A DNA stretch of 64,000 bases. Source: a virus (Duplodnaviria > Caudoviricetes). Shown in pieces: positions 18,506 to 48,022 of the stretch. The notes beneath the pieces were generated by a model. The model was given only the letters and a program-made list of their open reading frames with translations, did not search any database and was not told the DNA's origin. Position 1 is the stretch's first letter; every line of letters starts with the position of its first letter. The DNA lies in the IMG/VR virus record IMGVR_UViG_3300044259_000036, positions 27,596 through 91,595 of that record; one strand, written 5' to 3'. A program made the position numbers and the translations under genes.

Positions 18506-19075
18506 TCACACCTTCGTCAGGTAGTCCTTCATCAGGCTGTCCAAGGTCTGGTGCAGGTAGGCCAGGTCGCCTGTGTTGTGCACCTTGACGTTGGTCAGCC
18601 CTGGACTGATCCCCCGCTCGCTGGCATGGCCGGCGATGCCGACCTCCTCGATGCCCGGGCGGTCGATCTCGATCAGGATACCGCCCTGCTCTTTGATCCA
18701 GCGCGCCTCGGAGTCGAAGCGGACATCACTGAGGATCATGCCGGTGGTGTGCCCAGTCTCGGGCGACCAGAAGCCGTCCTTGACTGTGTTCCACTGCTTG
18801 GCCACCAGGTTCACCCACAGGTCCGGGTTCACCGCCCGGCCCCACTCGGTGCCCAAGGTCTGCATCAGCGCGCGGTAGCTGATCCCCGCCTCTGGGCAGA
18901 TCTGCTCCCGGTCGCCGGTGTGGAAGTGCGGGCCGAATACGGACGTAAGCATTTGCTTGATTGGTTCCGCAAATGCGTACTTACGTAAGTGCATACGTGC
19001 GGCAAGGTAGTCGGACATGGTGTCCTTGCCGGACCGGGCCTTGCCGTAGACCCCGATCAGGACGGGCTGCTTCAT
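18506..19075 (-). CDS. Deoxynucleoside monophosphate kinase
   Basis: GKARSGKDT, FAEPIK, RALMQTLGTEWGR, SDVRFDSE and HASE motifs. Confidence 0.92.
   Translation of the reverse strand: MKQPVLIGVYGKARSGKDTMSDYLAARMHLRKYAFAEPIKQMLTSVFGPHFHTGDREQICPEAGISYRALMQTLGTEWGRAVNPDLWVNLVAKQWNTVKDGFWSPETGHTTGMILSDVRFDSEARWIKEQGGILIEIDRPGIEEVGIAGHASERGISPGLTNVKVHNTGDLAYLHQTLDSLMKDYLTKV
18935..19002. repeat. 4-bp phased repeat array inside the dNMP kinase CDS
   Basis: gaat acgg acgt aagc attt gctt gatt ggtt ccgc aaat gcgt actt acgt aagt gcat acgt gcgg. Confidence 0.75.
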
Positions 19076-19803
19076 GCCAGGCATGCTTGGAGCCCCTTAC
19101 GCAGGTCGTGGGAGAACGGCACCTCGCACTTGGTCAGCAGCCACTGGACGTAGTCCTTCTCCAGGTTTTTGAGCTTGCTGCCCTTGTGCTTGCCGAAGTT
19201 GATGGTCATGTTCGGCGTGCCTTCGTCCTTGGTAGCCCAGGCGATCAGCTCGTCCAGGCTGTTCAGGCCAGCTGCCTTGATCGCAGGGGCGACCAGGTCG
19301 AGGGTGGCGGTGACGTCAGCCAGTGCGTCGTGCGCCTTTTCCATCGGCTTGCCCAGCAGCTTCTCGTAGGACTGGACCAGCTTGGCGCCTTCCCAACCAT
19401 GCAGCTTCTTCAGCGCACGGCACGGCTTGATCATGTCGATGGAGAAGACGGGCTTCCAGCCCACCCGCATGCTGATCTTGTCGTCGTAGCTGTAGTTGTT
19501 GTAGCCGAACACCGCGTCCACCTTGAGGGCATTGACGGTGTCGAACTGTTCGGTCATGTACTCGATCCAGCACGGCTTGTCGGCCACGTCCATCATGCTG
19601 TAGCCGTGAATCGCGGTGGCTTCAGCGGTGATCTCCACGCCGGGGTTGAGCAGCTGGCAATCCTTGTCGAGGATTTCGTAGCTGCCGTCCTGGTGCAGTT
19701 TGACGATGATCAACGCAGCCTGCAGAACGCCGCAGGAAGCGGTGTCCAGGCCTGTGGTCTCGTAGTCATAAGCCAGTACGTCGATGCTGCGTCCGAAGTT
19801 CAT
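19072..19803 (-). CDS. DEDDh 3'-5' exonuclease (ExoX/DnaQ-like)
   Basis: YDYETTG, AIHG, YNNYSYD, AHDALAD and a C-terminal FGKHKG...YVQWL module. Confidence 0.9.
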   Translation of the reverse strand: MNFGRSIDVLAYDYETTGLDTASCGVLQAALIIVKLHQDGSYEILDKDCQLLNPGVEITAEATAIHGYSMMDVADKPCWIEYMTEQFDTVNALKVDAVFGYNNYSYDDKISMRVGWKPVFSIDMIKPCRALKKLHGWEGAKLVQSYEKLLGKPMEKAHDALADVTATLDLVAPAIKAAGLNSLDELIAWATKDEGTPNMTINFGKHKGSKLKNLEKDYVQWLLTKCEVPFSHDLRKGLQACLA

Positions 19804-20024
19804 TTGCGTTTCTTCCTTTTGGTGGTGGGCCGCACGTTGGGGAAATACCGGGCACAAAGGTCAGGATGTTCTTTCCTGAACTGGTCAATGCCCGCTTCAG
19901 CGCGGCTGAGCTTCGTGCTCAGGCCTCTGATCATAATTCCTTGCTGATGCACCTGCAGTTTCAACTTGTCTAAGGACTCCACTGGAACCCCCGGGGGCAA
20001 TTGCCCCCGGAGTTCCGACGTCAA
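19800..20024 (-). CDS. Hypothetical protein (start uncertain)
   Basis: ORF coupled to the exonuclease start; its 5' part contains the 20-bp palindrome ccgggggcaattgcccccgg. Confidence 0.5.
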   Translation of the reverse strand: MTSELRGQLPPGVPVESLDKLKLQVHQQGIMIRGLSTKLSRAEAGIDQFRKEHPDLCARYFPNVRPTTKRKKRK

Positions 20025-20036
20025 GAGTCCGCACCA

Positions 20037-23000
20037 TCAGTCAACAACATCGAGTTCAACCTCCTCGTCTTCGTCCAGCTCAACCAGGGTGTATTTCGTG
20101 ATTGGATCGAACGGCTCAAGCATGTCCTCGTTCCAGATGTAGCCCGACTCCCACAGGGCCAGATCCACGTATTCCTGGACGTTCTTCGGGCTGATATCGC
20201 GGCCCAGTTCGTGTACCCGGCCCCAGTCGGCGCCGATGGAGAACTCCGGCACCTGGCGGACCACATGGTCAGGCGGCGTCGACTCTTCCATGTACTTGCC
20301 CATCTCTTGGCAGTAGGCGAGCACGTCGTCCTTGTGCACCCAGGACACGATTTCGTCGTATACCGGGGCGAAGAACTCCATGCGCAACCGGTCCAACATG
20401 TCCGACTCGGCCACCCGGGTGAGCACGATCCGCAGCATGTCGGCGCCGGTGCCCTGGATCTGGGCGTTGGTGCCTTGACGATGCTGCCGAGCGACCTTGC
20501 CGTTGTCCTTGTGGAAGATGTCGGCCGTGGCGTGACGCTTCGAGCCGTAGGCAGTCAGCGTGTAGCCATGGGTCTCCATGAACTTCGCCGACTCCTCCTG
20601 CCACGGCCGGATTCGCCAGTAGAGCTTCATGGTCTGCTCGAGGAGCTGCTTCGCTTCCTCCAGCGGGGCGATCAGGTTGCGGGACAGCGTGCCCGCGCCG
20701 GCGCCGTAGGCCATGCCGAAGTTGATCGTCTTGGCCTTGCCGCGGATCGCGATGCACAGCTTGTGCATCGGGTGATCCTCGCTGTCCTTGGCCAGACAGA
20801 ACTCCAGGTAGTCCATCTTCGCGATACCGGACCCGGTCATGCTGTGCAGGTCTTTCTCGTTCTCCGGGTCGTAAACGCTCAGCATCACCGGGTCTTTTGC
20901 GAGGTTCGCCATGATGCGAATCTCTTGACCGTTGAAGTCGATCGCCACGCACAGGTAGTCGCGGTTCGGCGGCACGTAGATCGAACGCATCGCCTTGCCT
21001 GCACCTTTCTTCGGCACCTGCAGGATGTTCGGCGCCGAGCCGGTTGGACGGCCGGTGTCGGTACCGTAGTCGGTGATGTACGGGTGAACCCGGCCATCGC
21101 GGTGACGCCAGAGCGGGTACTTGTCGTGGTACAGGCTGCAGCGGGTGGTAGCGGTCTTGACCTTACGCAGGACATCCAGGGCGTCACGCTGCCACTGGAG
21201 CTTCACGTCGTTCGCGATCGCCGTCAGGATCGCCTGCTCGTCGGTGGACGGGCCAGCTTCCTGAATGCCCACAGCCAGGCGACCTTTGCCTGCCTGCTTG
21301 CCCCGCAGCTTGACCGGCACGCCGATCTTGCAATACAGCAGCTGTTGCATCTGCGCCGGGCTGCCCACGTTCAGTGGGTCGCCGAAGGTCACGATGCGAG
21401 GCTCGACGCCGGCAGCGCGCTGCACGATGTCAGCCATGACTTCCATGTGGGACTCGGCTGCCAACAGGGCCTGTTCCGCGGCGTTGCCGCCGTCCTCGGT
21501 CTTCTTCCGCAGATCGCCCATCTTCAGGCAACCCAGGTTTATGGCCTTGGCCAGCAGCTTCACCATGGCTACCTGATCGGCGTTCAGCTCCCAGTTTTCC
21601 TCATAGCCTACGGCGCCGGCCGCTTCCAACCACTGGTTGAACGCCTTCTGCGACAGGCTCTCGAACTCGGGCAGGCCCAGGTTCTTCATCGCCGGGTTCA
21701 GCTGGGTCGGAGTGAAGGCGAAGGTCGGCATGATCTTCTCCTCCCGATACGGCGTGTATTGGCAGGATGCCTCCAGCTTCTTACGCCATTCGACCAGCTT
21801 CTGCGTCGCGACCTCGGTGTTGCCGTCGGCCTTCTTCTTGGCGGAGCGGAAGATGTAGTCCTTCTCCGCCTCGATCAAGGACAGGCAGCCCTCGGTGATG
21901 TTGCCGGTGACGTTCTCCAGCAGGATCTGGCGCAGCTCGACCATGCCTTCCTCAATGGTCTTGAGGTCGGCGGCGTGCAGGCGTTTCTGCTGCGCCCAGT
22001 TCATGTTGACGCCGCAGATGTAGGAGCGCTGCAGGACTTCGGTCGGCCGCACTGCCCAGCGGCTGTAAAAGTCCCACTGCCCGTCCAGCTTCAGCAGCAG
22101 CTCAAGCAGGTCGTGCAGGTGACCTGTGACCAGGGAGTCATCGGTACCGTAGGTGAACGTCTCGTCGGCGGTCAGCTCGCACATCATGTTGACGCCCAGG
22201 CCACCGTTGCCAGCTGCCAGGGTGTCTTCAAACGAGGCCTGCTCATAGCCGAGGTAGTTCAGCGACAGGAACTTCAGGCCGGCCGGCGTGTTCTCGTCGT
22301 AGAAGCGCTGCATCATCCGGGTGTCGTGGACGTTCTTTAGCCGCTTGCCCAGGTTGGTCTGCGTCACCACGCCTTCAAAGTGGGCGTTGTGGGCGATCAA
22401 CTGGGTATGCTTCTCGGCGTGCTCCAGGATCTCCAGCACCACCAGCTTGTTGACGTTGGCCGAGTCCTTGTGGTCTACGGGAACGTAGATCACGTTCTCC
22501 ATGTGCCGCCCGAACTGGAACGAGGCGCCGGCCAGCTCCTGGCTGAGGGCATCGACGAAGCTGTTACCACTGGCCGAGGCCATGCGGAACCCGGGGATTG
22601 GGTCCTTGTCGCTGGACTCGTAGTCGAACGCGGTCTTGTCGCCTGCCTCGATCTCCGCAAAGATCGCTGCCTTCATGTCGGCCCAGTTGTTTGCGTCGAC
22701 CATCAGCGGCGCCGGCAGGACTGGCTCAAAGTGCGACCACAGGTCCAGCGCGCCGATATCGGCCAGCAGGTCGTACAGCCGCTGCGGGTTGGGCACGCGC
22801 TTGTCGATGGTCAACTTGGTCAGCTTACGCTGCCGCGGCTTCCAGCACAGCTCGGGCTTGAGGTTGGCCAGCTTCCAGCCAGTGCGCCACTCACCGAAGG
22901 ACTCGCGCAGCTTGATCAGGATCTTGTTGCCCGTCTCCTCGATCGCCGCGTCCAGCTCGGTAGTGTTGCCGCTGGCCACGATAGCTTGCAGCTCCAAGAG

Positions 23001-23675
23001 GCCATCGTCGCCGAAAGCCTCGCGAAGATCGCGTATCTTCTTCGGACCGAGGCCTTTCACGCCGCCGTAGTTGTCCGAAGGGTCGCCGACGATCGACTTG
23101 GCGAAGCTGGTCAGGTAGTACGGCAAGCCCGCCAGGTCGTGAGTGTCGTCGTAGGTGCCGTCGGCGCCGAAGTGCGGGGCGCCCTTCAGGTAGACGATGG
23201 TGTCGTCATCGACCAGCTGCAGCATGTCCTGGTCGACGGTGTGGATGTTCATCGGCCCTTTCACCATCTGGCGAATCCAGGCCATCAGGTCATCCGCTTC
23301 CACGCCTTTGACCGCCAGCTGCGTGACGCCCAGGTTGCGTAGGAACTTCTTCGCCCAGTCCATCATGAAGCCGTACTGCTCGATCTCGACCGGCGACTTG
23401 TTCTCGTCCTTCTTCGACTTCTGGCCCTTGTAATCAGGGTAGATGCCGGTGCGGTAGTCACGACCGAAGTCGTGGGCAACGATCATTTCCCGCGGCGAAC
23501 CACCGCCGTCGAGGACCGGGATGACGTAGCGGGTCAGGAAGTCCGCTGCACCAGTCTGCCAGGTGGCGAACCGGCGGTCCGTCTTCTCGCAGTGGATGCC
23601 CTCGTCCTTCGAGGCGCCGTAGTAGGCGTGCTTGGCGCACGCCCGAAAGTCCATCACGTTGTAGGGAAGTTTCAC
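20037..23675 (-). CDS. polA: Family A DNA polymerase with 5'-3' and 3'-5' exonuclease domains
   Basis: 5'-exo (YPDYKG, EADD, GDPSDNYGGVKGLGPK); 3'-exo (FDYES, HNAHFE, YGTDD); motif A DFNGQEIR, motif B RGKAKTINFGMAYG, motif C VYDE. Confidence 0.95.
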   Translation of the reverse strand: MKLPYNVMDFRACAKHAYYGASKDEGIHCEKTDRRFATWQTGAADFLTRYVIPVLDGGGSPREMIVAHDFGRDYRTGIYPDYKGQKSKKDENKSPVEIEQYGFMMDWAKKFLRNLGVTQLAVKGVEADDLMAWIRQMVKGPMNIHTVDQDMLQLVDDDTIVYLKGAPHFGADGTYDDTHDLAGLPYYLTSFAKSIVGDPSDNYGGVKGLGPKKIRDLREAFGDDGLLELQAIVASGNTTELDAAIEETGNKILIKLRESFGEWRTGWKLANLKPELCWKPRQRKLTKLTIDKRVPNPQRLYDLLADIGALDLWSHFEPVLPAPLMVDANNWADMKAAIFAEIEAGDKTAFDYESSDKDPIPGFRMASASGNSFVDALSQELAGASFQFGRHMENVIYVPVDHKDSANVNKLVVLEILEHAEKHTQLIAHNAHFEGVVTQTNLGKRLKNVHDTRMMQRFYDENTPAGLKFLSLNYLGYEQASFEDTLAAGNGGLGVNMMCELTADETFTYGTDDSLVTGHLHDLLELLLKLDGQWDFYSRWAVRPTEVLQRSYICGVNMNWAQQKRLHAADLKTIEEGMVELRQILLENVTGNITEGCLSLIEAEKDYIFRSAKKKADGNTEVATQKLVEWRKKLEASCQYTPYREEKIMPTFAFTPTQLNPAMKNLGLPEFESLSQKAFNQWLEAAGAVGYEENWELNADQVAMVKLLAKAINLGCLKMGDLRKKTEDGGNAAEQALLAAESHMEVMADIVQRAAGVEPRIVTFGDPLNVGSPAQMQQLLYCKIGVPVKLRGKQAGKGRLAVGIQEAGPSTDEQAILTAIANDVKLQWQRDALDVLRKVKTATTRCSLYHDKYPLWRHRDGRVHPYITDYGTDTGRPTGSAPNILQVPKKGAGKAMRSIYVPPNRDYLCVAIDFNGQEIRIMANLAKDPVMLSVYDPENEKDLHSMTGSGIAKMDYLEFCLAKDSEDHPMHKLCIAIRGKAKTINFGMAYGAGAGTLSRNLIAPLEEAKQLLEQTMKLYWRIRPWQEESAKFMETHGYTLTAYGSKRHATADIFHKDNGKVARQHRQGTNAQIQGTGADMLRIVLTRVAESDMLDRLRMEFFAPVYDEIVSWVHKDDVLAYCQEMGKYMEESTPPDHVVRQVPEFSIGADWGRVHELGRDISPKNVQEYVDLALWESGYIWNEDMLEPFDPITKYTLVELDEDEEVELDVVD

Positions 23676-23911
23676 GGCTTCTCCTTGCCCACTTGGGCCT
23701 GCTGGAGTCGCGCCGCTGCCAGGGCGCAGGCAGTCGAGCTGCCTGAACCACCGGTGCTGAAGGCACAGTCAGCGGCAATGGGGTCGGCCCCATCGCGGAT
23801 GGCTTGGGCCGTCAGGTTGTTACTGTGAACGGTGCAGGAGACCGGGACGCCCACAACGATGGCTGCGAGTGCCAGGGCGCCCAGCCAGTGCACGATTACT
23901 TCAGCGTCCAT
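23672..23911 (-). CDS. Small membrane protein
   Basis: N-terminal TM segment, GADPIAADCA; coupled to neighbours. Confidence 0.65.
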   Translation of the reverse strand: MDAEVIVHWLGALALAAIVVGVPVSCTVHSNNLTAQAIRDGADPIAADCAFSTGGSGSSTACALAAARLQQAQVGKEKP

Positions 23912-24645
23912 TACTCACCCCGCGTCAGGGCAGCCCAGCTCACCGGGAACAGCGGCTCGATGATCTTGCCGACCTGGTCGAACAGCTCACGCACTTCCTG
24001 CTGGGCGTGGGTGTCGGAACGAGCGTTGAAGGCCATGGCGTAGGCATACAGGCTGCCGGTCCAGACCCAGTGCACTTCCACGCCTTGGGCCAGCACGAAG
24101 CGCGCTTGTTCAGGGCACACGCCGTCCTTCAGCATCGAGAGGTAGATGCGGATGCCGTTCTGGACGTGCTGGGTGTAGGTGAACTTCCAGTATTCGCTCT
24201 GGTGGTGCTTGCCTGCGCTACCCTGCTTGACGTCCTCGGCCGCGGCGCGGAACTCCTCGGGAACGTAGAACACCGGCTCTGAGGTGATGTAGCGGCGGCT
24301 TTCCTCGGACTCGACGTAGCCGATCTTGTGCTTGAAACACTGGGTGCGGATCGGTACAGGTGCTTCCATGCGGATGGAGATGTGGGGGTGGCCGAACGGT
24401 ACCCAGTGGGTCGGAATCTTGCGCAGATGCACAGCGAGATGGTGTGCCAGCTCGCGGGTCTCCAGCTCGACCATGCTGTCCAGAATGCCGTTCCAGTCGC
24501 TGGTCTTAACGCCGCGAGCCAGGTAACGAATCAGGCTCGCGTTCTGGTCTTCGGTGTAGTTGGCAGCGAGGTCAGCGAACGAGTGACGTGCGAAGTTGGC
24601 CACGTCGTCGTCGGTCAAATAGTGGCTTTGGTAAACGGCTTTCAT
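23911..24645 (-). CDS. thyX: Flavin-dependent thymidylate synthase
   Basis: VANFARHSF, HWVPFGH, KHKIGYVESEESRRY, GVCPEQARFVL and HAQQEVR motifs. Confidence 0.92.
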   Translation of the reverse strand: MKAVYQSHYLTDDDVANFARHSFADLAANYTEDQNASLIRYLARGVKTSDWNGILDSMVELETRELAHHLAVHLRKIPTHWVPFGHPHISIRMEAPVPIRTQCFKHKIGYVESEESRRYITSEPVFYVPEEFRAAAEDVKQGSAGKHHQSEYWKFTYTQHVQNGIRIYLSMLKDGVCPEQARFVLAQGVEVHWVWTGSLYAYAMAFNARSDTHAQQEVRELFDQVGKIIEPLFPVSWAALTRGE

Positions 24646-24926
24646 GCGCGGATGATCTCCCCTTTCTCACCCCAAATAGGCTTCCCGCCTACGGCGACCA
24701 TGGCTGCGTTCATTTCAGCGCGGCTGAGCAGCTTGCCGCGGATGTGCGGGCTGTGGCTGCCAATGTCCTCGGGCATGCACAGGATCAGCGTGCCTTTCGA
24801 CAGCTGACCAGGTTGCCGGAGGGTGGCACCGTCGTCGTGGACGTGGGTACAGCCGAAGTGCGCCATCAGCTTGTGCTTGTGAGTGGTTTTGCCGGTGCCG
24901 GCAGGTGAAGCGAAAATGATTGGCAT
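24642..24926 (-). CDS. Small P-loop protein
   Basis: IIFASPAGTGKTT at the N-terminus of a 94-aa ORF. Confidence 0.6.
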   Translation of the reverse strand: MPIIFASPAGTGKTTHKHKLMAHFGCTHVHDDGATLRQPGQLSKGTLILCMPEDIGSHSPHIRGKLLSRAEMNAAMVAVGGKPIWGEKGEIIRA

Positions 24927-24943
24927 CGCCTAATCCTTGTTCT

Positions 24944-25600
24944 TTACATGTAGGTAACGTCGGCCAGCAGGACCTGGGGCGGCCCTCTGGTGCTCTTGGG
25001 TCTGTTCGAGCCGGGGTCCTCGCCGCCGACCGAGCCCACCTTGATGTCGTCGATGTAGATCGAGGTGCCGGAGACCCACATAGCCTCTTGGTAGAGGTCC
25101 CAAGGGGAGTGGGTGATGGGGCGTTTCTCAACCCACATGCGGGAGAACGACATGGCAGCGGCGTAGGACCGACCGTCTTGGGGGATGCTGAACGAGTTCG
25201 GGCCGGTCCCAGTCACCTGGAACACGTCCTTCAAGGTCAGGACCATGTAGGCGGCGTCGTAGGTCAGCTCGCCCGAGGCGTTGAACACCTGCATGCCAGA
25301 GTTACTGGCTGCAGGAGGCCCCTTGTCGAAGATGTAGAGCTTCACGTCCGCTTGGCTGTTGGCCCGCAGCGTGAATCGCCAGAGGTTGGTGCCGATGTAG
25401 ACCCTGCTGAGCACGACCACTCCGATGCCGTTGGTGTTGCCCAGGAACAGCATCGGGCTCACACCGTAGACGTCGTAGTAGGTTTTGTTGGGGTAGCCTG
25501 CAACAGTGATCACCGGGGCTGCCCGAAGGCCGACCGCCGAGTAGTTCTCGTCGAACTGGACCGTGCCCCAGTCGTTGATGCTTTGGAATCCTGTAGGCAT
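24944..25600 (-). CDS. Tail-tip accessory / putative receptor-binding protein
   Basis: MPTGFQSINDWGTVQFD and internal GMQVFNASGELTYD repeats, characteristic of the ~200-250 aa gene that follows J-like genes. Confidence 0.7.
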   Translation of the reverse strand: MPTGFQSINDWGTVQFDENYSAVGLRAAPVITVAGYPNKTYYDVYGVSPMLFLGNTNGIGVVVLSRVYIGTNLWRFTLRANSQADVKLYIFDKGPPAASNSGMQVFNASGELTYDAAYMVLTLKDVFQVTGTGPNSFSIPQDGRSYAAAMSFSRMWVEKRPITHSPWDLYQEAMWVSGTSIYIDDIKVGSVGGEDPGSNRPKSTRGPPQVLLADVTYM

Positions 25601-25602
25601 GG

Positions 25603-25890
25603 TCAGCGGAACCCGTAGGTGATGATCACTGGTTTGTTGGAAGTCCACTGCACGTTGCCGAACTCCCAGAAGAGGGTGTTACCCTCGAACCAGATGTCCG
25701 GCAGCAGGTGGTTCAGCTGCGGTTCCTCCACCGGGGTGGCGTAAGCCCAAGGCGTGCCTTTGGCTGTATCCGTCCAGACGCTACCGCTGCTGGTACCTGA
25801 GTCCACTGTCCCAACGAAGGTGCCGACCCTGGCACTGGTGTCTACGATCAGACGACCACTCGCATCCCATACTTGCAATCCGTTAGGCAT
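25603..25890 (-). CDS. Small tail-tip accessory protein
   Basis: MPNGLQVWDASGRLIVD...ITYG, the ~100-aa type that normally directly follows J. Confidence 0.72.
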   Translation of the reverse strand: MPNGLQVWDASGRLIVDTSARVGTFVGTVDSGTSSGSVWTDTAKGTPWAYATPVEEPQLNHLLPDIWFEGNTLFWEFGNVQWTSNKPVIITYGFR

Positions 25891-25902
25891 AGGCTCCCTA
25901 CC

Positions 25903-26127
25903 TTATTGCTCTGTGCGCAGCTCCGACTTAGGCGTCCAGCCGCTGTCCTTCTTCACCATGCAGCCCACGCCGATGGCGTACTTCACGGTGCGGTCGGTCT
26001 GGTAGCCGTACAGCTGACAGCTGCCGAGGTTCCAGGCGGCCTTCACGACCATAACCATGAGCACCAACAGCAGCAGGATCAGCCAGGTCAGCGTCTTGAC
26101 CGACAGACCTTTCTTCTCCGCGGCCAT
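25903..26127 (-). CDS. Small membrane protein with a two-Cys exported domain
   Basis: TM helix followed by CQLYG...KY...C..K...W. Confidence 0.7.
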   Translation of the reverse strand: MAAEKKGLSVKTLTWLILLLLVLMVMVVKAAWNLGSCQLYGYQTDRTVKYAIGVGCMVKKDSGWTPKSELRTEQ

Positions 26128-26582
26128 CAGGCTTCCACCTGCAGGTAGTCTTCGATGCGCAGACCGAACTCGCGGCCGATTTCGCGCAGGACTTCCATCT
26201 CGGCCTTCTCGATCGGCATTTCAGCCTGGGCCATGGCGATCATGTTCACGAACACTTCTTCAGCGTCCTGCTTGTTGTTCTTGATGTCGGCGATTTCGCG
26301 CTTGATGTGCACACGGCCCACGATGAAGTTGGCCTTCAGCTGCGCGCTGAAGCGGTTGATGGTCTGGCCGATCTCGCTGCCGAAGTGGGTCAGCGCCGGG
26401 TTGGAACGGATCAGCTCGTCCAGCTTCAGGATCTCGTTGTCCGAGATGTTGCCGTCGGCTGCGGCCACCAGCAGAGCACCACCCACGATGGCTTCCATCA
26501 GGTCCTTGTTTTCGACCTTCTTCATTTCAGCCAGGGCGTTGCCAGCTTTGCGACCGAACATCTTGCCGAGAGATTTCAACAT
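26127..26582 (-). CDS. terB: TerB-family protein (P1 TciA-like)
   Basis: EAIVGGALLVAAADGNISDNE...E.EVLREIGREFGL; aagga SD. Confidence 0.85.
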   Translation of the reverse strand: MLKSLGKMFGRKAGNALAEMKKVENKDLMEAIVGGALLVAAADGNISDNEILKLDELIRSNPALTHFGSEIGQTINRFSAQLKANFIVGRVHIKREIADIKNNKQDAEEVFVNMIAMAQAEMPIEKAEMEVLREIGREFGLRIEDYLQVEA

Positions 26583-26583
26583 T

Positions 26584-26675
26584 GCGTAAGTCCTTGTGTG
26601 CGTAGTTACTTGCTTGAGTAGGTACGCAGTTACGTAAGTACGCAACTGCGCAATTGCGTAGGTACGTGCTTACGG
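26584..26675. repeat. 4-bp phased repeat array upstream of terB
   Basis: gcgt aagt cctt gtgt gcgt agtt actt gctt gagt aggt acgc agtt acgt aagt acgc aact gcgc aatt gcgt aggt acgt gctt acgg (23 units). Confidence 0.85.
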
Positions 26676-26861
26676 AGTAACGATGATCCAACTATCGCCG
26701 GCTTTCGCCAAGCAGTAATTGGTTCGGCTGTCGAACTTGGTGGTCACGCTGTAGGCCTTGCCGTATGCCTCACAGCGGTCCATCCGCTCGTTGGTCTTTA
26801 CGACAGCCATCACGATCACAGCTGTAACCACCAGTCCGGCCAGCCAGTAGCCGATGCTCAC
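26670..26861 (-). CDS. Small membrane protein with a two-Cys exported domain
   Basis: TM helix followed by CEAYG...KF...C..K...W. Confidence 0.65.
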   Translation of the reverse strand: MSIGYWLAGLVVTAVIVMAVVKTNERMDRCEAYGKAYSVTTKFDSRTNYCLAKAGDSWIIVTP

Positions 26862-27535: not shown

Positions 27536-27551
27536 AAGGGGAGCTGCCAGA

Positions 27552-35162: not shown

Positions 35163-35180
35163 GGGTATATCTCCTTATAC

Positions 35181-35222
35181 CGTTATGCGCTTATGCTATT
35201 ATGTGCTTATGTGCGCGTCAAC
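35181..35222 (-). promoter_or_regulatory. Sigma70-like promoter overlaid by four CATAA repeats at 8-bp period
   Basis: On -: TTGACG-17 nt-TAGCAT; cgcacataa gcacataa tagcataa gcgcataa; strong SD taaggag downstream. Confidence 0.7.
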
Positions 35223-40892: not shown

Positions 40893-40989
40893 TTTGTGGG
40901 GTCCGGGTGAGTTGGAGATGTCCGATTGCTGCATCGCAGGCACGGGGATACCTCGCCAGATGGCGAAGTATCTCCAGATCGGTGGGAAA

Positions 40990-41529
40990 TTACCAGTTGT
41001 AGCTGGTGAGGTCGTCGATGGTGGGCACCGTCGAGTCAATGCGAACCCAGTCGTAGCCCTTCGCCGCGGCCCATTCGGCCACTTCGCGGATGCTTTGCGG
41101 GATCAGCGCTACGTCGTCGTGATCGAGGAGAACACGGAAGAAGTAGCCTGCGTCGTAGGGTGCCAGGATGATTGGCCCGCGCCGTCCGTCCCAGGTCTGC
41201 AGCCACTGATCGGCGTCTTCGCTAATGTGGTTGGTACTGAGCACCGGTACCACCTGTCGCTCGAAGCTAGGCTTAGGTGGCGGTGGTGGCTTCGATTCGT
41301 CTAACGCCGGGTGAATACGCCACTTGTACTCACAGCCGCCGGTACGCACCGAACTGAACTGGTCGTGGCCTTCCATGAACAAGGCCGGGATCGAGTGCTC
41401 GGCGGTGGCCACGCTGCCCTCGCCCACCTTCACCTTGTAGAATCCGTGCGGTACCGGCACCGGGGTGCCGATGATGTTCATGCGCTTGCCGTCGATGTAC
41501 AGGTGGTCCTGATTTTTCAGCGTCTTCAT
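40990..41529 (-). CDS. Hypothetical protein
   Basis: Two domains separated by a PPPPP linker; C-terminal LSTNHI...GYDWVRIDS. Confidence 0.65.
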   Translation of the reverse strand: MKTLKNQDHLYIDGKRMNIIGTPVPVPHGFYKVKVGEGSVATAEHSIPALFMEGHDQFSSVRTGGCEYKWRIHPALDESKPPPPPKPSFERQVVPVLSTNHISEDADQWLQTWDGRRGPIILAPYDAGYFFRVLLDHDDVALIPQSIREVAEWAAAKGYDWVRIDSTVPTIDDLTSYNW

Positions 41530-41753
41530 TCGTCTTCGTCCTCTTCTTCCTCGTCGACGCGCTCAATGGTGACGCGGCCGCACTTGTTGCCGTTGATGTC
41601 GTTCAGGCGGAAACCGTCGCCGTCGCTGCCGAAGTCACCGTTCTCGATGCGCTTCGCAGCCTCCCGCAAAATGCGGGCGATCTCGGTGGCCGGTGAGTCC
41701 TCGAAGGCCGCATTCCCGTTGGTTTCCAGGGTGACGCTGATGCGCTCGCTCAT
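41526..41753 (-). CDS. Hypothetical protein
   Basis: gagga SD; NAAFED...EIARILR...LNDINGNKCG; acidic tail. Confidence 0.7.
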   Translation of the reverse strand: MSERISVTLETNGNAAFEDSPATEIARILREAAKRIENGDFGSDGDGFRLNDINGNKCGRVTIERVDEEEEDEDE

Positions 41754-41754
41754 T

Positions 41755-41878
41755 GCGTAAGTCCTCAATTAAGTGCGTATGTACTTGCGTACTTACGGAT
41801 TTACGCACCTACGTATTTACGTAAATACGTGAGTGCGAAGTTACTTTGACACGTATGTGCTTATGTACTTAACTACGT
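41755..41878. repeat. parC/parH-like centromere-operator: 31 phased tetramers overlapping the parA promoter
   Basis: gcgt aagt cctc aatt aagt gcgt atgt actt gcgt actt acgg attt acgc acct acgt attt acgt aaat acgt gagt gcga agtt actt tgac acgt atgt gctt atgt actt aact acgt; TTGACA at 41846-41851. Confidence 0.85.
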
Positions 41879-41907
41879 AGTTCCACGGTCCGAATCTGGT
41901 AACCACC

Positions 41908-42594
41908 ATGAAAGTATTAGTCATCACCGCGCAGAAGGGCGGCGTCGGCAAGACCACCCACTGCGGCCACCTTGCCGTCGAGCTGACCCTACGCGGGAAG
42001 CGCGTCGTCATCGTCGACACCGACCCCCACGCCGGCCTCACCGAATGGTGGGACGATCGCAAGGCTGAGGACATTCAGCTGCTCAACCTCGAATTCAAAC
42101 ACCTGGCAGCCGGCCTCAAGCGCCTGGCTGCCGAGGGCGTCGACTACGTGATCATCGACACCCCTGGCGTGGCCAGCAAAGCGGTCAAGGTCCTGATCCA
42201 GTACGCCGACCTGGTGATCGTTCCCACCAAGGCCAGCCGCCATGACCTTCGCGGCATCCGCAAGACCCTGGAGCTGATGGAATCCGAGGGCGAGCCGATC
42301 GAGAAGCCCATGATCTTCGTGCTGAACGAGGTCCGACCCCGCACCAAGCTGGAGACCCAGGCCATCATGGCCATCGGTCAGTACGGCAAGATGGCCCCTG
42401 TGGTGCACTCGCTGAACGAATTCGTCAGCAGCATGAACGACGGCCGGGCCTGCGTCGAAACCGCACCCAAGAGCAAGGCAGCTGACCAGACTCGAGCCCT
42501 GGCTGACTACGTGCTCAAGCAGGTGGGCGACTTCCCGCGTCCTCAACCACGTAAGCAACCACGCACTTACGTAGGCACGGAGGTCGCTGAATGA
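41908..42594 (+). CDS. parA: Type Ib partition ATPase (ParA/ParF)
   Basis: QKGGVGKTT, VDTDP and IIDTPG motifs; short, no N-terminal HTH. Confidence 0.95.
   Translation: MKVLVITAQKGGVGKTTHCGHLAVELTLRGKRVVIVDTDPHAGLTEWWDDRKAEDIQLLNLEFKHLAAGLKRLAAEGVDYVIIDTPGVASKAVKVLIQYADLVIVPTKASRHDLRGIRKTLELMESEGEPIEKPMIFVLNEVRPRTKLETQAIMAIGQYGKMAPVVHSLNEFVSSMNDGRACVETAPKSKAADQTRALADYVLKQVGDFPRPQPRKQPRTYVGTEVAE
42545..42584. repeat. 4-bp phased array in the parA 3' end / partner RBS
   Basis: aacc acgt aagc aacc acgc actt acgt aggc acgg aggt. Confidence 0.7.
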
Positions 42595-42875
42595 ACGCCA
42601 CCTCCAAGTCGTCGGACCTGCCACCCTCGATCCTCACAGCCAAGTCTCGCACCGCGGCTACCGTGCTGCCTGACGACGCCGAACTGGAGGCACAGAACGA
42701 GCCTGTCGCTGCACCTGCAGAGGTCGGCGGCACCAAGGCGCTGACCGTCAAGGTCGACATGCCGCGCTACAAGCGGATGCAGATGGCCAGGATCAAGCGC
42801 GACAAGACCACTCAGACCATCCTCAGCGAGGCCCTGGACCTGTGGTTCAAGAAGTACGATCGCCCAGCCCCTTGA
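42591..42875 (+). CDS. ParG-like ribbon-helix-helix centromere-binding protein
   Basis: Flexible N-terminus and C-terminal KALTVKVD...YKRMQ...TTQTILSEALDLWF; ATGA-coupled to parA. Confidence 0.82.
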   Translation: MNATSKSSDLPPSILTAKSRTAATVLPDDAELEAQNEPVAAPAEVGGTKALTVKVDMPRYKRMQMARIKRDKTTQTILSEALDLWFKKYDRPAP

Positions 42876-44256
42876 GCACCCGCTCTGCCTGAGCTACGGC
42901 CTGTTCCTTATCCGGGAACTGGCCGTACTCCGCACCATCTGCACCGCTAACGAAATGCACCCTCCTCGCATGCTCATGGTCGTATGGGATCAGGCATGAA
43001 TAGGCGCTGATCCCCTCCTTGTCCAGGTGCACCACCCTTGGCGCCTCCATGGCCGCACCTGAGCTGATCTTCACCATCTCGTATCTGTCACGCATATCGC
43101 TCACCTTCGATGGCTGATTGTTGCTTGAAAAGCAAAGATCAAAAGCTGGCCCCTGCGGGGCTGTTATCTGATGGACACCATGCTTAACATCCCGGATGTT
43201 GGTTACCGAGGCCCCTGTAGGGGCTTCTTTGACGACATGGGGATGCGCTGCCACGGTCTGCCTGGTGATGCCGGCGATCAGTGCGATCGCAGCCTGGGTC
43301 AGCCGCTTGCCTTGGGCGCGCAGCGACGCACAGGCAGCGCGGATCTTTGACTCCGTGGCCTTGTGTCGGACTTCGTGGGTTCGCTTCGCTGCGAGGCGCT
43401 GCCGCGTCTGCAGGGGCAAGGACTTGTCCAGCTCCATCGCGCCCCTGTGGCATTTGCCGCCGCCCTTGTACTTGGCCCAGGTCCACCTGGCCACCGAGCG
43501 CACCGTGGCGCGCACCGAGGACAGGGGCAGGTTCTGTGCCGTGCGGAATTTGTGGAAGTGGTTGCTGTTGTGGGCGAACGCCTCCAACCGGCTGAAGAAC
43601 CGCTCGTAGGAGCGGGCAGCGCGCATCTCGTTGACGATGCTGTAGGCGTAGAACCTCAGCTTCTCGAACAGGGTGCAGTGGCGGGAGTGGCTGACGCTTT
43701 CCAGGTCCGGCGATTTGCGCCACGACACGGCGTCCAGCTCGACGTAGTCGGCCAGCTCGCCCAGCTCATGCACCCTGTTGTGCAGCTCCGTCGTCTGCCA
43801 CCACGGGTGCCCGGGCGTCTTGGCCACCGGCCCGCTGCTATACGCCTGGTCGGAATCCAGGCGCGCGGCGAAGGCGGCGTACACCGCTCGCATGTAGAAG
43901 ATCGGATGTGACCGGGCATTCTCCGTGGTGCACACGGGCACGATCGCATAGTAGAGATGCGAGTGTCCGTTCGTCCGATTTCTTACAATGAAATTTGGCG
44001 CCGGTAAACCAGCGTCCTCCCACGCCCATGCGTTCTCATGGTCGAGGTCGAATATGAGCCAGGAGACGAAGCCCTGGCGGTTGATCTGCATGTACGGCCA
44101 ACGGATCGCATAGTCCCGCGGCAGAGTGCGCGCAGCGGTTTTGTCCTCACTACAACGGGGCAGGTACGGCGCCTCTGTCAGCAGCCGGTTGAATGCCGTG
44201 CCGGCCTCGAAAAATCGCGAGGTCGGGGTGTAGGCCATGCCCGTGGGTCGTTCCAT
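42847..44256 (-). CDS. repA: Plasmid replication initiator, ColE2/pPT23A-type primase Rep (Replicase-PriCT-HTH)
   Basis: LIFDLDH, PAPNF, NGHSHLYY, KTP.HP.W, SRHCTLFE, SVARWTW, then an HTH (TQAAIALIAGITRQTV). Confidence 0.92.
   Translation of the reverse strand: MERPTGMAYTPTSRFFEAGTAFNRLLTEAPYLPRCSEDKTAARTLPRDYAIRWPYMQINRQGFVSWLIFDLDHENAWAWEDAGLPAPNFIVRNRTNGHSHLYYAIVPVCTTENARSHPIFYMRAVYAAFAARLDSDQAYSSGPVAKTPGHPWWQTTELHNRVHELGELADYVELDAVSWRKSPDLESVSHSRHCTLFEKLRFYAYSIVNEMRAARSYERFFSRLEAFAHNSNHFHKFRTAQNLPLSSVRATVRSVARWTWAKYKGGGKCHRGAMELDKSLPLQTRQRLAAKRTHEVRHKATESKIRAACASLRAQGKRLTQAAIALIAGITRQTVAAHPHVVKEAPTGASVTNIRDVKHGVHQITAPQGPAFDLCFSSNNQPSKVSDMRDRYEMVKISSGAAMEAPRVVHLDKEGISAYSCLIPYDHEHARRVHFVSGADGAEYGQFPDKEQAVAQAERVLKGLGDRTS
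43155..43195 (-). other. Putative ColE2-type replication origin inside repA
   Basis: The - strand reads ...GTCCATCAGATAACAGCCCC, matching the ColE2 origin core ATCAGATAACAGC as recalled from memory. Confidence 0.65.
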
Positions 44257-44303
44257 GAGGTCGCTGCCATGCGGTCAGCTGACATGAATTTCATGTTTCA
44301 GGC

Positions 44304-44332
44304 TTGCAGGAAGCCACCATGAAAGCCATACT
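44304..44332 (+). promoter_or_regulatory. Promoter for antisense RNA
   Basis: TTGCAG-17 nt-CATACT. Confidence 0.7.
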
Positions 44333-44338
44333 CAGCTC

Positions 44339-44436
44339 ACGTTTTGTGGGAAGTAATCAGATCGGCACCGTGGAAGGGATAGACCTGATTACTTACTGTT
44401 CGACCAAAAAGCCCGGTTCCCGCCGGGCTTTTTGGT
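44339..44436 (+). ncRNA. Putative antisense copy-control RNA (RNAI-like, about 95-100 nt)
   Basis: Lies between the promoter above and the terminator accaaaaagcccgg-ttcccg-ccgggctttttggt; internal hairpin aagtaatcag...ctgattactt; complementary to the repA leader. Confidence 0.65.
44403..44436. terminator. Bidirectional terminator / attenuator in the repA leader
   Basis: 14-bp perfect inverted repeat with a T5 tract on both strands. Confidence 0.8.
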
Positions 44437-44478
44437 TTCTGTCGTTCTGTTACTTCACTTCAAAACTCCCATCCACTG

Positions 44479-44525
44479 TGTGGATAAACAGTCGCGCATT
44501 GTAGGGCGGTTGGATCCAAGTGCAA
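44479..44525 (-). promoter_or_regulatory. repA promoter with downstream DnaA box
   Basis: On -: TTGCAC-16 nt-TACAAT (44525-44498); perfect DnaA box TTATCCACA at 44487-44479. Confidence 0.65.
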
Positions 44526-44590
44526 GCGATATTCGTGTGGTTATAGCCACTTAGCGTAAGCGGTAGACGACCGGTAAGCAAATCGGCTGG

Positions 44591-44992
44591 CTACGTCCCA
44601 AGATAATAGTAGATCTCGCCGTCTGTACCCTTGAACATGCGCCCGCCGCAGGTGCCTTTTTCGGCCAGCTTCTCGTAGGCGTCCCAGTCCCAGTCGCTTG
44701 GGTCCAGGCCTGGTGCCTCCTTGATGTCGCCGGAGATCATCTGTATCAGCAGCGCGTTGCATTCCTGAACCGTCCACCCGTCGATTTCTTCGTCGCTCCA
44801 GGCGCCGAAGCCACGGGCGTGGTCGCGCAGCGCTTCGACCTTGGCCGAGGTGTCGAGCATCAGGTGCTCGTCGACGGCTTCCTTCGCTGCGTTCCAGGTG
44901 ATGGTGCCGGCCTCCTCGCCCTTCTCGGCGCGGGAGGCCGAGAAGTCGTGAGGGTTGGCCTCGTTGAAGAACTTGGTGATGTTGATTTCCAT
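44591..44992 (-). CDS. Hypothetical protein (acidic)
   Basis: gaagg SD; last gene of the right-hand leftward array. Confidence 0.7.
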   Translation of the reverse strand: MEINITKFFNEANPHDFSASRAEKGEEAGTITWNAAKEAVDEHLMLDTSAKVEALRDHARGFGAWSDEEIDGWTVQECNALLIQMISGDIKEAPGLDPSDWDWDAYEKLAEKGTCGGRMFKGTDGEIYYYLGT

Positions 44993-44994
44993 GG

Positions 44995-45549
44995 TCACAC
45001 CTTCGTGACGATGAAGAACGTCATGCTGAGGTCGTTCGGTGCCAGGTAGGCCTCCGGGATCGCCCCGCTCATGTACCACTCGCCCTTCTTCGGGCAGCGT
45101 TGCGGCTGGCCGTCCCAGCGGAACTTGCGGCCGGCAGCTTCCTCCTGCTCGCGCTCGCAGTCGGCGGCCGGGATTGGGGTGTAGCCGATACGTGGTTTCA
45201 CGGTTTCATCCTCGTTCTGTGCCCAGGTTACCTGCAGGACGTATGCAAGGACCTCGCTGGGGAATTTGTTGGTGCCGAAGGAGACGATCGCTGCATCGTC
45301 GCAGTGGCGCAGGGCCTTGATGACCAATGCGGTCATCTTGGCGTGGGTTTTGTGGTCGACGTGGGTGCGCGGCAGATGCGCGCCCAGCGGGTCCAGGGCC
45401 AGGCGGCTGCTGAAGACATCGTGCGCCTCCTTCCAGCTATTCAGCGTGGCGTCGACGATGTCGTAGGCGCAATTGTAGATCAGGGTGTTCTCCCCTCCCG
45501 GCCATTTGCCGACGGAGGGGTTCAGGTGGCGGAGCTGTTGCAGGTACAT
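44995..45549 (-). CDS. Hypothetical protein
   Basis: ggagga SD; tight packing. Confidence 0.65.
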   Translation of the reverse strand: MYLQQLRHLNPSVGKWPGGENTLIYNCAYDIVDATLNSWKEAHDVFSSRLALDPLGAHLPRTHVDHKTHAKMTALVIKALRHCDDAAIVSFGTNKFPSEVLAYVLQVTWAQNEDETVKPRIGYTPIPAADCEREQEEAAGRKFRWDGQPQRCPKKGEWYMSGAIPEAYLAPNDLSMTFFIVTKV

Positions 45550-45551
45550 GG

Positions 45552-46892
45552 TCAGTCCTCCGGTTGGTCCAGCCAATGGTCGAGCACCGCCCGCACGTTC
45601 TCTATGCGGATGCGGATCGGGTCAAGATCCGTGTTGAGTACATCGGATTCCAGACGCTCCAGCAGCAGGGCCATGGCCAAGTCGTAGCCTTCCAGGTCGC
45701 CTTGCGCGTCGATCTCGCAGCGTTCGGCCAGCCACTGGATTGCGCCGGCCAAGTTGTGCCGGCTGACCATTTTGAATTCGTGGCTCTTGCTGTACTCGAA
45801 CACCCGGTGCTCACCGGTCAGAATCGTCGTGGCGATGCGGGCTGTGAACGCCATGGACAGCCGCGCTGCCGCATAGTCCAGGTGGTCATCGGGGGAGTCA
45901 TTCCCGTCTCCCAGTTCGCACTCCCAATACGGGGAGATCGTTACCGGGCTGCCGGTAGGCACGTCGTGGTGGCTCAGGCGGCAGCGCATCTCGGCGTTGC
46001 CGTCCTGATAGCAGCGCAGCTGGCCACCGCTGACGGTGAAGTCGCTGTTGACCTTGATCTTGTCGGCCAGCTCTTTGCCGTCCAGCGGGCACTCTGCCCA
46101 GGCATCGCGGCCGCGCCAGTCGGCGTGGCCCACCTCGATGCGCAGGCCGTCTGGTTTCGGCATGCCGCTGGCCTGCAGGTGCTTGGTCAGCTCGGTCACC
46201 AGGTGCTCGAGGTGGTCCTGGTAGTTCTCCCAGATTTCCCGGCCGTCCTGGTCGTCGTAGGCGGCGTCGGGCAGGTCCTCCGCAGGGCTTACCTTGACTC
46301 GGGTGACCGCATCACATTGGTCACAGCGACAGTACGGCCCACTCAGGTGGGTAAATCCGCCCAGGTCGTGCTCGTTCTCCTTGAGGAAGGCCGCGGGTGT
46401 GTCGTCGCCCATCTGCTCTCGGACGTGTACCTCATGACCGCAGGAGGCGCACCCGACGGTGGTCCAGTATTCCCGCTCACTTTCACCATCGTCGTCGTTG
46501 TAGCTGAAAGTCCCACGAACGATCGACTTGACCTGGTCGCCCTCGAAGTAGAACTGGTCGAGGAAGCCTTCGACCGGGAGCGGGATCATCGCGGTGCAGC
46601 CGAACGCCCTGGCCATGCGCTGGCCCAGTTCGCGGCTGAGAGGCTTGTGACGCTGCGACCAGGTGAGGTGCCGCCAGAAGTGGCGGCCGGCAGCCAGGTT
46701 GGCCTTGCCCTTCGCGGCATCGAGGAGGGCGCGGTAGAGGATGGCCGGATGCTTGCCTACCACCTGCAGGCGGTGGAACTCGGTCAGGCTAACCTTGTAG
46801 AAGTTCAGGAACTGGGGAAGCGCCCACCATTGGCACTCAGGTTGGTTGATGTAGCGAGCTGCGGTGAGCTTGCAAGGTCTTGAGTTGCCCAT
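45552..46892 (-). CDS. Hypothetical protein with central C4 cluster
   Basis: 446 aa; CASC...CDQC; gagga SD. Confidence 0.75.
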   Translation of the reverse strand: MGNSRPCKLTAARYINQPECQWWALPQFLNFYKVSLTEFHRLQVVGKHPAILYRALLDAAKGKANLAAGRHFWRHLTWSQRHKPLSRELGQRMARAFGCTAMIPLPVEGFLDQFYFEGDQVKSIVRGTFSYNDDDGESEREYWTTVGCASCGHEVHVREQMGDDTPAAFLKENEHDLGGFTHLSGPYCRCDQCDAVTRVKVSPAEDLPDAAYDDQDGREIWENYQDHLEHLVTELTKHLQASGMPKPDGLRIEVGHADWRGRDAWAECPLDGKELADKIKVNSDFTVSGGQLRCYQDGNAEMRCRLSHHDVPTGSPVTISPYWECELGDGNDSPDDHLDYAAARLSMAFTARIATTILTGEHRVFEYSKSHEFKMVSRHNLAGAIQWLAERCEIDAQGDLEGYDLAMALLLERLESDVLNTDLDPIRIRIENVRAVLDHWLDQPED

Positions 46893-46954
46893 CGGGTCAG
46901 TCCTCGGTAGTTGGTGTTACTTGGGTTGGTATCGTTCTGCTAGTGCGATGTTCA

Positions 46955-47155
46955 TCACATGTACTCTCCCGCCTCCTCATGCTGGCTTGCGTCCAGGTTG
47001 ATACCTTCGCGCATGCGGAAGTAGGTGTATCCCCTTTTAGTTCGACGGGTGTTCCGTAGCTTCAGCAGGTCGGGGTTCTGTTCCCCGCCGCTGAACTCCC
47101 AGTCGGTCTTGGAGATCTTCAGGTAGACGTGTCCGTTGTAATTGATCCTGGTCAT
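46955..47155 (-). CDS. Hypothetical protein
   Basis: Coupled small ORF. Confidence 0.55.
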   Translation of the reverse strand: MTRINYNGHVYLKISKTDWEFSGGEQNPDLLKLRNTRRTKRGYTYFRMREGINLDASQHEEAGEYM

Positions 47156-47158
47156 GCA

Positions 47159-47512
47159 CTACTTGACCGGCGTCCATGCGTTGAACTGGTCGATCAGCTT
47201 GTCGATTGGGTTGTCCGGTAGGCTGCGGGTCACCTGCAGCTCGCGGATCTCATGCGGAGCGCCGGTCAGGGCCTGTAGCACGCTGCGCAGCGCGGCCATG
47301 TCGATGTTCGGGTGGGTGGCAGCCTCCGACATCCTACCTGACATCCAGACCTTGAACAGGAAGGTCGACTGCATGAACTTGAACGTGAAGGGGTCCCGGT
47401 TGAATGCGGGGTGTACCTTTCCGTCCTCCTTCACGCAGTTGGGGTCGACCTCTTGCATGTCCGAGCGGAAATGCTCCATCAGCTTGAGGGTGAGTTCTTG
47501 TTCCGGCGTCAC
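47159..47512 (-). CDS. Hypothetical protein
   Basis: GTGA overlap; LQALTGAPHEIRELQ...NPI motif. Confidence 0.6.
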   Translation of the reverse strand: MTPEQELTLKLMEHFRSDMQEVDPNCVKEDGKVHPAFNRDPFTFKFMQSTFLFKVWMSGRMSEAATHPNIDMAALRSVLQALTGAPHEIRELQVTRSLPDNPIDKLIDQFNAWTPVK

Positions 47513-47676
47513 TTCGCCTTCCTCGCAGCGCGCTGCAGCTTACGGATGCGTTTGCGCTTGGCGCGATGGCCTGTGGGCTTGAACACATGCAGGCTGCGGA
47601 CGTGCTTGCAGCCGTTCCACTTCCCCTCCGGCTGGGTGGGTACCGGGGCGGAATCGTAGTCATAATCGTCGAACAT
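47509..47676 (-). CDS. Small protein with acidic N-terminus and basic C-terminus (not in ORF track)
   Basis: aggag SD; MFDDYDYD...KRKRIRKLQRAARKAK, 55 aa. Confidence 0.55.
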   Translation of the reverse strand: MFDDYDYDSAPVPTQPEGKWNGCKHVRSLHVFKPTGHRAKRKRIRKLQRAARKAK

Positions 47677-47685
47677 GGGCGTCTC

Positions 47686-47889
47686 CTACGCTCGTGCTAT
47701 CAGTGTCTTGCTGCCGTCATCTTCGACGCGATGCAAGGTGGTCATGTCCTTCAGGACATGGTGTTCGTCCAGCTTCTCGTTGGCCACGACAGCGGCGGTC
47801 TGGTCGTCAGTCGCCTCGATGTCGAAACAGAGCTGGCTGAACTTGCCGCCACCTTCGGCGGCGGTGAAGGTCAAGATGTAGTTGTTCAC
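47686..47889 (-). CDS. Hypothetical protein
   Basis: ggag SD; GTG start. Confidence 0.6.
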   Translation of the reverse strand: MNNYILTFTAAEGGGKFSQLCFDIEATDDQTAAVVANEKLDEHHVLKDMTTLHRVEDDGSKTLIARA

Positions 47890-47950
47890 GCTGCCGGGAT
47901 CTCCAGTGGGTTGACCCTGCTGGGCTCTCGCAAGAGCCCAACGGTCAATC

Positions 47951-48022
47951 GACTGCGTAGGTGCGGACTTACGTACTTACGCACTCACTTGGGTACGTGA
48001 CCACTCAAGTGAGTACGTAAGC
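47951..48022. repeat. 4-bp phased repeat array downstream of the TAXI gene
   Basis: gact gcgt aggt gcgg actt acgt actt acgc actc actt gggt acgt gacc actc aagt gagt acgt aagc (18 units). Confidence 0.82.

Follow-up and report, generated by a model that had tools for sequence, protein, structure and literature searches.

We identified seven phased repeat arrays in the genome of a metagenome-derived tailed phage (IMG/VR record IMGVR_UViG_3300044259_000036), five of them in a 64,000-nucleotide stretch, here called the window, that corresponds to G000:C1:27596-91595 of the 91,595-base contig. Coordinates below are window positions unless another prefix is given. Sequence comparison indicates that the arrays most probably form a scattered set of binding sites for a type Ib partition protein, a small ribbon-helix-helix (RHH) protein encoded beside the partition ATPase gene parA. 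The arrays were located with a tetramer matrix trained on the array at 41755 alone, the score of which is therefore circular. Against a uniform background, the matrix found seven segments across the 91,595 bases, with scores of 26.7-89.8 bits. Shuffled sequence had been proposed in an earlier note on this DNA as the control, and phased arrays proved not to occur at background frequency: in 100 local 100-bp shuffles the maximum was 19.1 bits, and no segment reached 20 bits. With a background set to the GC content of the genome, shuffles averaged 0.04 segments of at least 20 bits, with a maximum of 23.8 bits. We conclude that the arrays are real and not products of chance.

Two arrays lie outside the window: A1 (G000:C1:3146-3201), located ahead of the gene that opens the rightward virion operon, and A2 (G000:C1:24212-24243), in an operon-internal spacer. 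A3 (18935..18998; 38.4-43.8 bits) is wholly within the deoxynucleoside monophosphate (dNMP) kinase gene. A4 (26584..26675; nine CG boxes; 62.6-66.5 bits) occupies the whole spacer from the stop codon of a 63-residue open reading frame (ORF) to the start of a terB-like gene directly downstream (26127..26582, minus strand; Pfam TerB, E 3e-9), including the ribosome-binding site of that gene. A5 (41755..41882; 11 CG boxes), the training set, fills the spacer between parA and the divergent leftward DNA-metabolism block, and A6 (42545..42584; four CG boxes; 24-27 bits for the extended segment) lies in the 3′-terminal part of parA, immediately ahead of the ribosome-binding site of the RHH gene. A7 (47947..48022; six CG boxes; 47.5-50 bits) lies in a co-directional spacer and starts nine bases past the stop codon of the gene at 48031-48900. 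Five of the six phased arrays listed in the earlier note are thus present and true to phase, while the sixth (35181-35216) is at background and two further arrays lie beyond the window. Gaps round the circular genome are 21.1, 22.3, 7.7, 15.2, 0.7, 5.4 and 19.1 kb, in place of the spacing of about 5-9 kb proposed earlier; the six loci are spread more evenly than random positions (p 0.02-0.04, post hoc).

The arrays within the window, A3-A7, keep phase without indels. The repeat period is, however, 8 bp and not the strict 4 bp first described, with CG-centred boxes alternating with spacers such that every second tetramer is a box. Pairs of CG boxes numbered 25 at a lag of two tetramers, against 12.8 expected, and one at a lag of one tetramer, against 13.7 expected; for either count, 0 of 5000 shuffles was as extreme. 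The unit is TRCGYA plus two bases, TRCGYA being the core derived from 44 boxes, and each array has 4-11 CG boxes. On the sense strand, six arrays hold nine ACGC and three GCGT tetramers, too few for a claim about orientation. Contigs of related phages from independent samples span A3 (run X3), A4 and A5 (both run X4) without gaps. A7 is also present in a related-phage contig (run X3), where deletions of 1+3 and 16 bases preserve the 4-base phase.

The contig ends overlap by 127 bases, and the genome was therefore taken as a circle of 91,468 bp. Its virion operon runs rightward, and its DNA-metabolism and early genes run leftward. Related phages are the Pseudomonas phages UAntarctica, Lana and PMBT3 (DNA polymerase identity 68-71%), which have the backbone and gene order in common with the present phage but, unlike it, lack parA, the RHH gene, rep and the arrays. 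These three genes are inserted within the leftward block, and none of them was found in Lana, PMBT3, UAntarctica or the related phages G017 and G006. A further search of 17 Lana-like records in IMG/VR, 10 of them less than 90% complete, gave ParA in none, which left no second complete Lana-like genome with par for comparison.

The product of parA (41908..42594, plus strand) is a short Walker-type ATPase of 228 residues (Pfam AAA_31/CbiA; PHROG 164, E 3e-42) with a deviant Walker A motif at residues 10-16 and no N-terminal helix-turn-helix (HTH) domain, ParA-family matches beginning at residue 1. The next gene (42591..42875, plus strand) encodes the predicted array binder, a ParG-like protein of 94 residues with an N-terminal tail and a C-terminal RHH. 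The best PDB match of its family profile, built from 32 relatives, was TP228 ParG (1p94; E 5.7e-7). The ParG-like assignment rests on this profile match, because the Pfam Antitox_RHH match was below cut-off and the top fold-search matches, all RHH proteins, included none at E<=0.001. In an AlphaFold model the N-terminal half is of low confidence and helices span residues 57-70 and 74-89. No other RHH-like ORF was found in the genome. The RHH protein had no match among GenBank phages, and single-protein IMG/VR searches with ParA and with the RHH protein also returned none. The third gene, rep (42847..44256, minus strand), encodes a plasmid-type replication initiator with Replicase and PriCT-1 domains (Pfam PF03090, E 1e-44) that is 48% identical to Rep of Comamonas plasmid pZM22-2.

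The cassette has every type Ib feature that sequence can address: a short ParA without HTH, a downstream RHH protein with an N-terminal tail, and an array upstream of parA. Arrays at the positions of A5 and A6 are also found at homologous par loci. A5 is interrupted by a perfect TTGACA hexamer (41846..41851, plus strand), a candidate -35 element of the par promoter, followed by a poor -10. The earlier note has the longest array overlapping the parA promoter; a promoter scan, however, found no full consensus promoter in A5. By analogy with known type Ib loci, A5 is likely to be the par operator and the main centromere.

Comparison across replicons points to the RHH protein as the binder, as had been predicted. 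No array of at least 18 bits was present in 416 kb from five Lana-like phages without par; Lana, PMBT3 and UAntarctica were covered in full, and G017 and G006 to the extent of 79.7 kb of ~83 kb each. Among 167 loci of ParA relatives (1.92 Mb, with flanks of up to 10 kb, many much shorter), 18 carried arrays of at least 20 bits, all of them no more than 1.5 kb from parA and none farther. Arrays also track the RHH β-strand: an array of at least 16 bits flanks parA at 13 of 16 loci with the strand [LM][TS]VK, as here, versus 7 of 81 others, although these loci are related and not independent. The motif occurs in plasmids with other Rep types, and homology to Rep was detected in only one of the array-bearing replicons compared; since array-bearing replicons use other initiators, the motif goes with the RHH gene rather than with Rep. 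We accordingly discarded the possibility that the arrays are Rep iterons, as the motif is found with unrelated initiators and in replicons without the present Rep. Taking these comparisons together, we consider it highly probable that the ParG-like protein binds all seven arrays.

The origin of A3 bears directly on whether the remote arrays were selected. The dNMP kinase gene that hosts it (18506..19075, minus strand; PHROG 139, E 2.8e-48) encodes a protein 50-57% identical to those of Lana, PMBT3 and UAntarctica. In the segment corresponding to A3, the three relatives have an identical peptide, whereas the present phage differs from them at four residues and at many third codon positions, where rare codons are used. 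GC content at third codon positions is 0.52 in this segment and 0.92 elsewhere in the gene. Among 3000 synonymous recodings of the A3 peptide, none reached the observed 38.4 bits (maximum 23.5), and the dNMP kinase genes of the relatives score 5.6-7.6 bits. A3 has no indel relative to these genes, only in-frame point substitutions, and was therefore built in place, which implies selection for the site. We conclude that A3 was made by recoding a conserved enzyme gene. The spacers that hold A2 and A4 are short and array-free in relatives, including Lana and PMBT3 ahead of terB. We suggest that a virulent Lana-like phage acquired the par-rep cassette, and that selection may then have created additional sites where they now stand, mostly in spacers but in one case within a gene.

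Two alternatives concern what the arrays are. A neutral origin, whether as microsatellites made by slippage or as stray par-operator copies, would be compatible with the 8-bp microsatellites of the motif seen in unrelated viral contigs, and copying could be reflected in the 13-15-base words that the arrays share above shuffles (sum 249 versus 206 +/- 10). However, only one of 100 adjacent octamer pairs is identical, so the units are degenerate and the arrays are not slippage repeats; the longest stretch common to arrays, 15 bases, is not above chance (p 0.4); the five par-less relatives have no arrays; and A3 arose by substitutions that run against codon bias in a conserved gene. The recoding of A3 largely refutes neutral origin, which we consider very improbable indeed. 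Only slightly more credible, and still improbable, is binding by some other protein, such as a multi-HTH protein encoded at 53917-54348, Rep or a host factor. The multi-HTH gene is likewise absent from the five par-less relatives, the binding of arrays by the RHH protein is itself a prediction from comparison, and four-box arrays exist in viruses without ParA. Against this, the motif flanks parA-RHH genes in plasmids and phages that otherwise share little with the present genome and varies with the RHH strand, and homology to the present Rep is as limited as noted above.

We next consider the distribution of such sites in other replicons. The N4-like Acinetobacter phage Ab2712 (OK149216.1), which is unrelated to the present phage, has 16 dispersed arrays. 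Its near-identical plasmid form, pRBH2-3 (NZ_CP110465.1, L250-L251), a circular A. baumannii plasmid record, has 15, compared with 0 in 40 shuffles. This record encodes ParA-RHH, with SVK as the RHH strand, an N4 capsid and a 10.9-kb gene at the position of the virion RNA polymerase gene, and is the only plasmid record with the N4 capsid in question. Of its 15 arrays, 13 are intergenic or lie over gene ends in a genome that is ~10% intergenic. Four par-less N4-like phages have 0, 0, 0 and 1 arrays. Most other systems are clustered. The complete 105-kb phage IMGVR_UViG_3300009092_000012 (G019) has arrays of 936 bp and 244 bp at par and nothing else of at least 20 bits; the longer (G019:C1:44536-45471; L027:8924-9859) comprises 234 tetramers in unbroken phase upstream of a homologous parA, far exceeding TP228 parH (~100 bp), and the 244 bp lie between parA and the RHH gene. 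In plasmid NZ_CP044072, six arrays sit at par and a single weak one (21 bits) is remote, and in the Methylomonas, Deefgea, PLAsvaD and p8E072658 plasmids every site adjoins either parA or the RHH gene. With backgrounds set to their own composition, pZM22-2 has four sites of 21-24 bits within a 6-kb stretch and G021 has three within 8 kb, so that local spreading is not confined to phage-plasmids.

We favour an RHH-bound operator at par together with dispersed extra centromeres elsewhere as the probable explanation of the seven arrays, from sequence and by analogy with characterized systems; that the remote arrays in particular are mainly centromeric also seems to us somewhat more probable than not. 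For the remote arrays, extra centromeres are the simplest account, since these arrays occupy spacers internal to operons or the middle of a gene, coincide with no consensus promoter and show a somewhat even spread. The multi-centromere reading put forward in the earlier note thus appears to fit both the array positions and known systems. RHH proteins are not known to slide along DNA as cytidine triphosphate (CTP)-clamp ParB proteins do. On our rationale, more cargo would therefore need either one very long array, such as the 936-bp array of G019, or several scattered ones, and the added sites would spread ParA-contacting cargo round the 91-kb circle. Extrapolating from TP228 and pSM19035, one ParG-like dimer would occupy each box and coat the 4-11 boxes of an array cooperatively, A5 and A6 would serve as an autorepression operator, and each array could nucleate a segregation complex for ParA-driven segregation of a circular plasmid prophage. 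Published work describes, for TP228, one ParG dimer per box of a box plus 4-bp-spacer array, with four boxes giving about half activity (PMC3130281), and, for pSM19035, four contiguous repeats as the minimum for ParA activation (PMC9499535). All seven arrays here have at least four CG boxes.

Several observations weigh against dispersed centromeres. Homologous systems with clustered sites only (the 105-kb phage G019 and plasmids of 15-134 kb) show that dispersal is not required for partition. The arrays of pRBH2-3 are not evenly spaced (p 0.34-0.38), and the site ahead of its parA scores a weak 16.7 bits. Arrays of four exact boxes were found one at a time in 20 stretches of viral sequence, with ParA in 0 of 17 searchable records (IMG/VR), and one array alone is therefore not diagnostic; many of these stretches are perfect microsatellites (146 of 292 octamer pairs identical) and some are degenerate, and the IMG/VR search for four exact boxes gave no further par-linked cases. 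Of the five remote arrays, four are in spacers that precede the start of a gene, a placement that would suit regulation as well. Finally, a plasmid prophage state of the present phage is predicted from gene content and a circular metagenome contig. The genome has the genes expected of a phage-plasmid, namely a full virion and lysis set (terminase, portal, capsid, tail and endolysin genes), a Replicase-PriCT rep and par, with no integrase match.

The RHH protein might instead act at the remote arrays mainly as an operator-bound repressor or roadblock, the sites having been selected to shut down or modulate transcription of lytic genes in the plasmid state, with the partition protein taking the place of a missing phage repressor. 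Consistent with this, PMBT3 is described as virulent and without integrase or repressor (PMC8421299), and scans of the present proteins against PHROG and Pfam found neither an integrase nor a CI-like protein; most small genes have no family, however, so a repressor could have been missed. A1 stands ahead of the gene that opens the virion operon and A5 is at the head of the leftward DNA-metabolism genes, and in pRBH2-3 three arrays surround the RNA polymerase gene. Coding sequence makes up 91.6% of the genome, yet five of the seven arrays are outside it (p 8e-5), but such placement is expected of any added site. RHH ParB proteins are reported to repress promoters that their sites overlap (PMC9499535). 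Here, however, no remote array lies over a 9/12 match to the sigma-70 consensus: A3, A4 and A7 have none, and a relaxed scan of all seven arrays gave a single 8/12 match, upstream of A4, with the proviso that this consensus may not be that of the phage group. Moreover, the replication operon has one clear promoter (35221-35193), and this is without an array of the TRCGYA type; A2, A4 and A7 are in operon-internal spacers and A3 is mid-gene. We regard silencing as the main role as possible but rather unlikely. A more general proposal, that virulent phages of the Lana-like and N4-like groups that turn into plasmid prophages by gaining ParA-RHH-rep evolve RHH sites in place across their lytic genes, to the point of recoding essential enzymes, so that the partition protein doubles as a repressor and permits lysogeny without CI, is a little more doubtful still. 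Centromeric and regulatory roles are not mutually exclusive.

The region at 35181-35216, which the earlier note had grouped with the arrays, is a different element. It scores 15.7 bits with the GC background and <14 bits with the uniform one, which is background level, and we rejected it as a member of the network, although it has a 13-base word in common with A5. On the minus strand, positions 35165-35221 carry TAA every 8 bp between the sigma-70-like promoter and the start of the Dda helicase gene, and this leader pattern is also present in Lana, PMBT3 and UAntarctica, all of which lack par genes. The TAA leader is a separate candidate operator of Lana-like phages.

Two other ideas about the arrays were abandoned. 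A link to the phage cytosine methyltransferase was discarded, as ACGT and ACGC are neither depleted nor in excess relative to kin, and a plain pattern of four RMKY units was unsuitable as a detector, since it misses A2, A4, A5 and A6 and gives single chance matches in 5 of 17 relatives. A Lana-like fragment with no detectable parA has a lone RHH gene (G014:C1:23088-23373; L020:8956-9240) with its own tetramer array over TTGACG, ~1 kb upstream of dda. In the ParA relatives P0005-P0009, encoded on contigs as long as 108 kb, the C-terminal tails are of low complexity and resemble read-through of an array, with confirmation at the DNA level for P0008/L026 only. The gene for the multi-HTH protein (53917-54462, minus strand) encodes several tandem HTH domains and is a possible plasmid-state regulator. 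Elsewhere in the genome, the tail protein gene at 11-9946 (G25563-37541) encodes 3992 residues with internal 111-bp repeats and is ~60% longer than its Lana counterpart, and a 12/24-bp repeat lies at the circular contig junction (63877-63922 and G000:C1:1-50), on the upstream side of the early genes that run leftward. A stretch of ~850 bp at G000:C1:2300-3145, which separates the divergent blocks of early and virion genes, has no clear gene and many CCTAGG/CTAG palindromes; it directly precedes A1 and is a candidate genome end, packaging or origin region.

The two families, Lana-like and N4-like, provide naturally controlled cases in which predicted sites of an acquired partition protein are spread through a lytic phage genome. 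They bear on why some replicons disperse their centromere and on how phage-plasmids of virulent ancestry remain silent when they have no obvious repressor. Because pRBH2-3 resides in a cultured host, chromatin immunoprecipitation sequencing and RNA sequencing are feasible. In the open-access literature, searched at the level of titles and abstracts, no account of RHH arrays dispersed through phage-plasmids was found.

The ParB proteins of the SopB/KorB type, which bind the centromere-like sites of N15 and RK2, are HTH proteins. Among the systems closest to the present one is TP228 ParF/ParG/parH-OF, in which a short Walker ATPase is likewise followed by a small protein with a tail and an RHH, and in which, according to PMC3130281, degenerate 4-bp boxes with 4-bp spacers give the same 8-bp period and the sites are both operator and centromere. 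However, the TP228 box is ACTC, whereas the box here is a CG-centred palindrome, TRCGYA, and the 20 TP228 boxes stand together 5′ of parFG, whereas here five arrays lie 5-25 kb off, one of them within a gene. In pSM19035 δ/ω, as proposed here, an RHH ParB is reported to act on several short arrays (six parS) as centromere and operator; its repeats are heptads, all over the copS, δ and ω promoters (PMC9499535), whereas the remote arrays here are among lytic genes without a consensus promoter. Myxococcus plasmid pMF1 resembles the present phage in having six dispersed sites with 8-bp units, ItA-ItF, some within ORFs, and these iterons were bound by the partition protein in electrophoretic mobility shift assays. 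It differs in being an 18.6-kb plasmid and not a phage, with a three-gene par operon and another motif, and the report on it gives no evidence on the origin of the sites (PMC3235114). The same report names N15, RK2 and pSM19035 as cases of dispersed centromeres. N15, with four inverted-repeat (IR) sites, IR1-4 (PMC7205306), and RK2, with its KorB sites (PMC3235114), thus also have dispersed centromere-like sites, but these are single inverted repeats, whereas the sites here are arrays that are predicted to be coated by an RHH protein. If the remote sites are only extra centromeres, they would be a modest extension of pMF1, N15 and pSM19035; what the present case adds is relatives without par as matched controls for both phage families, together with a site that demonstrably arose through the recoding of a conserved gene.

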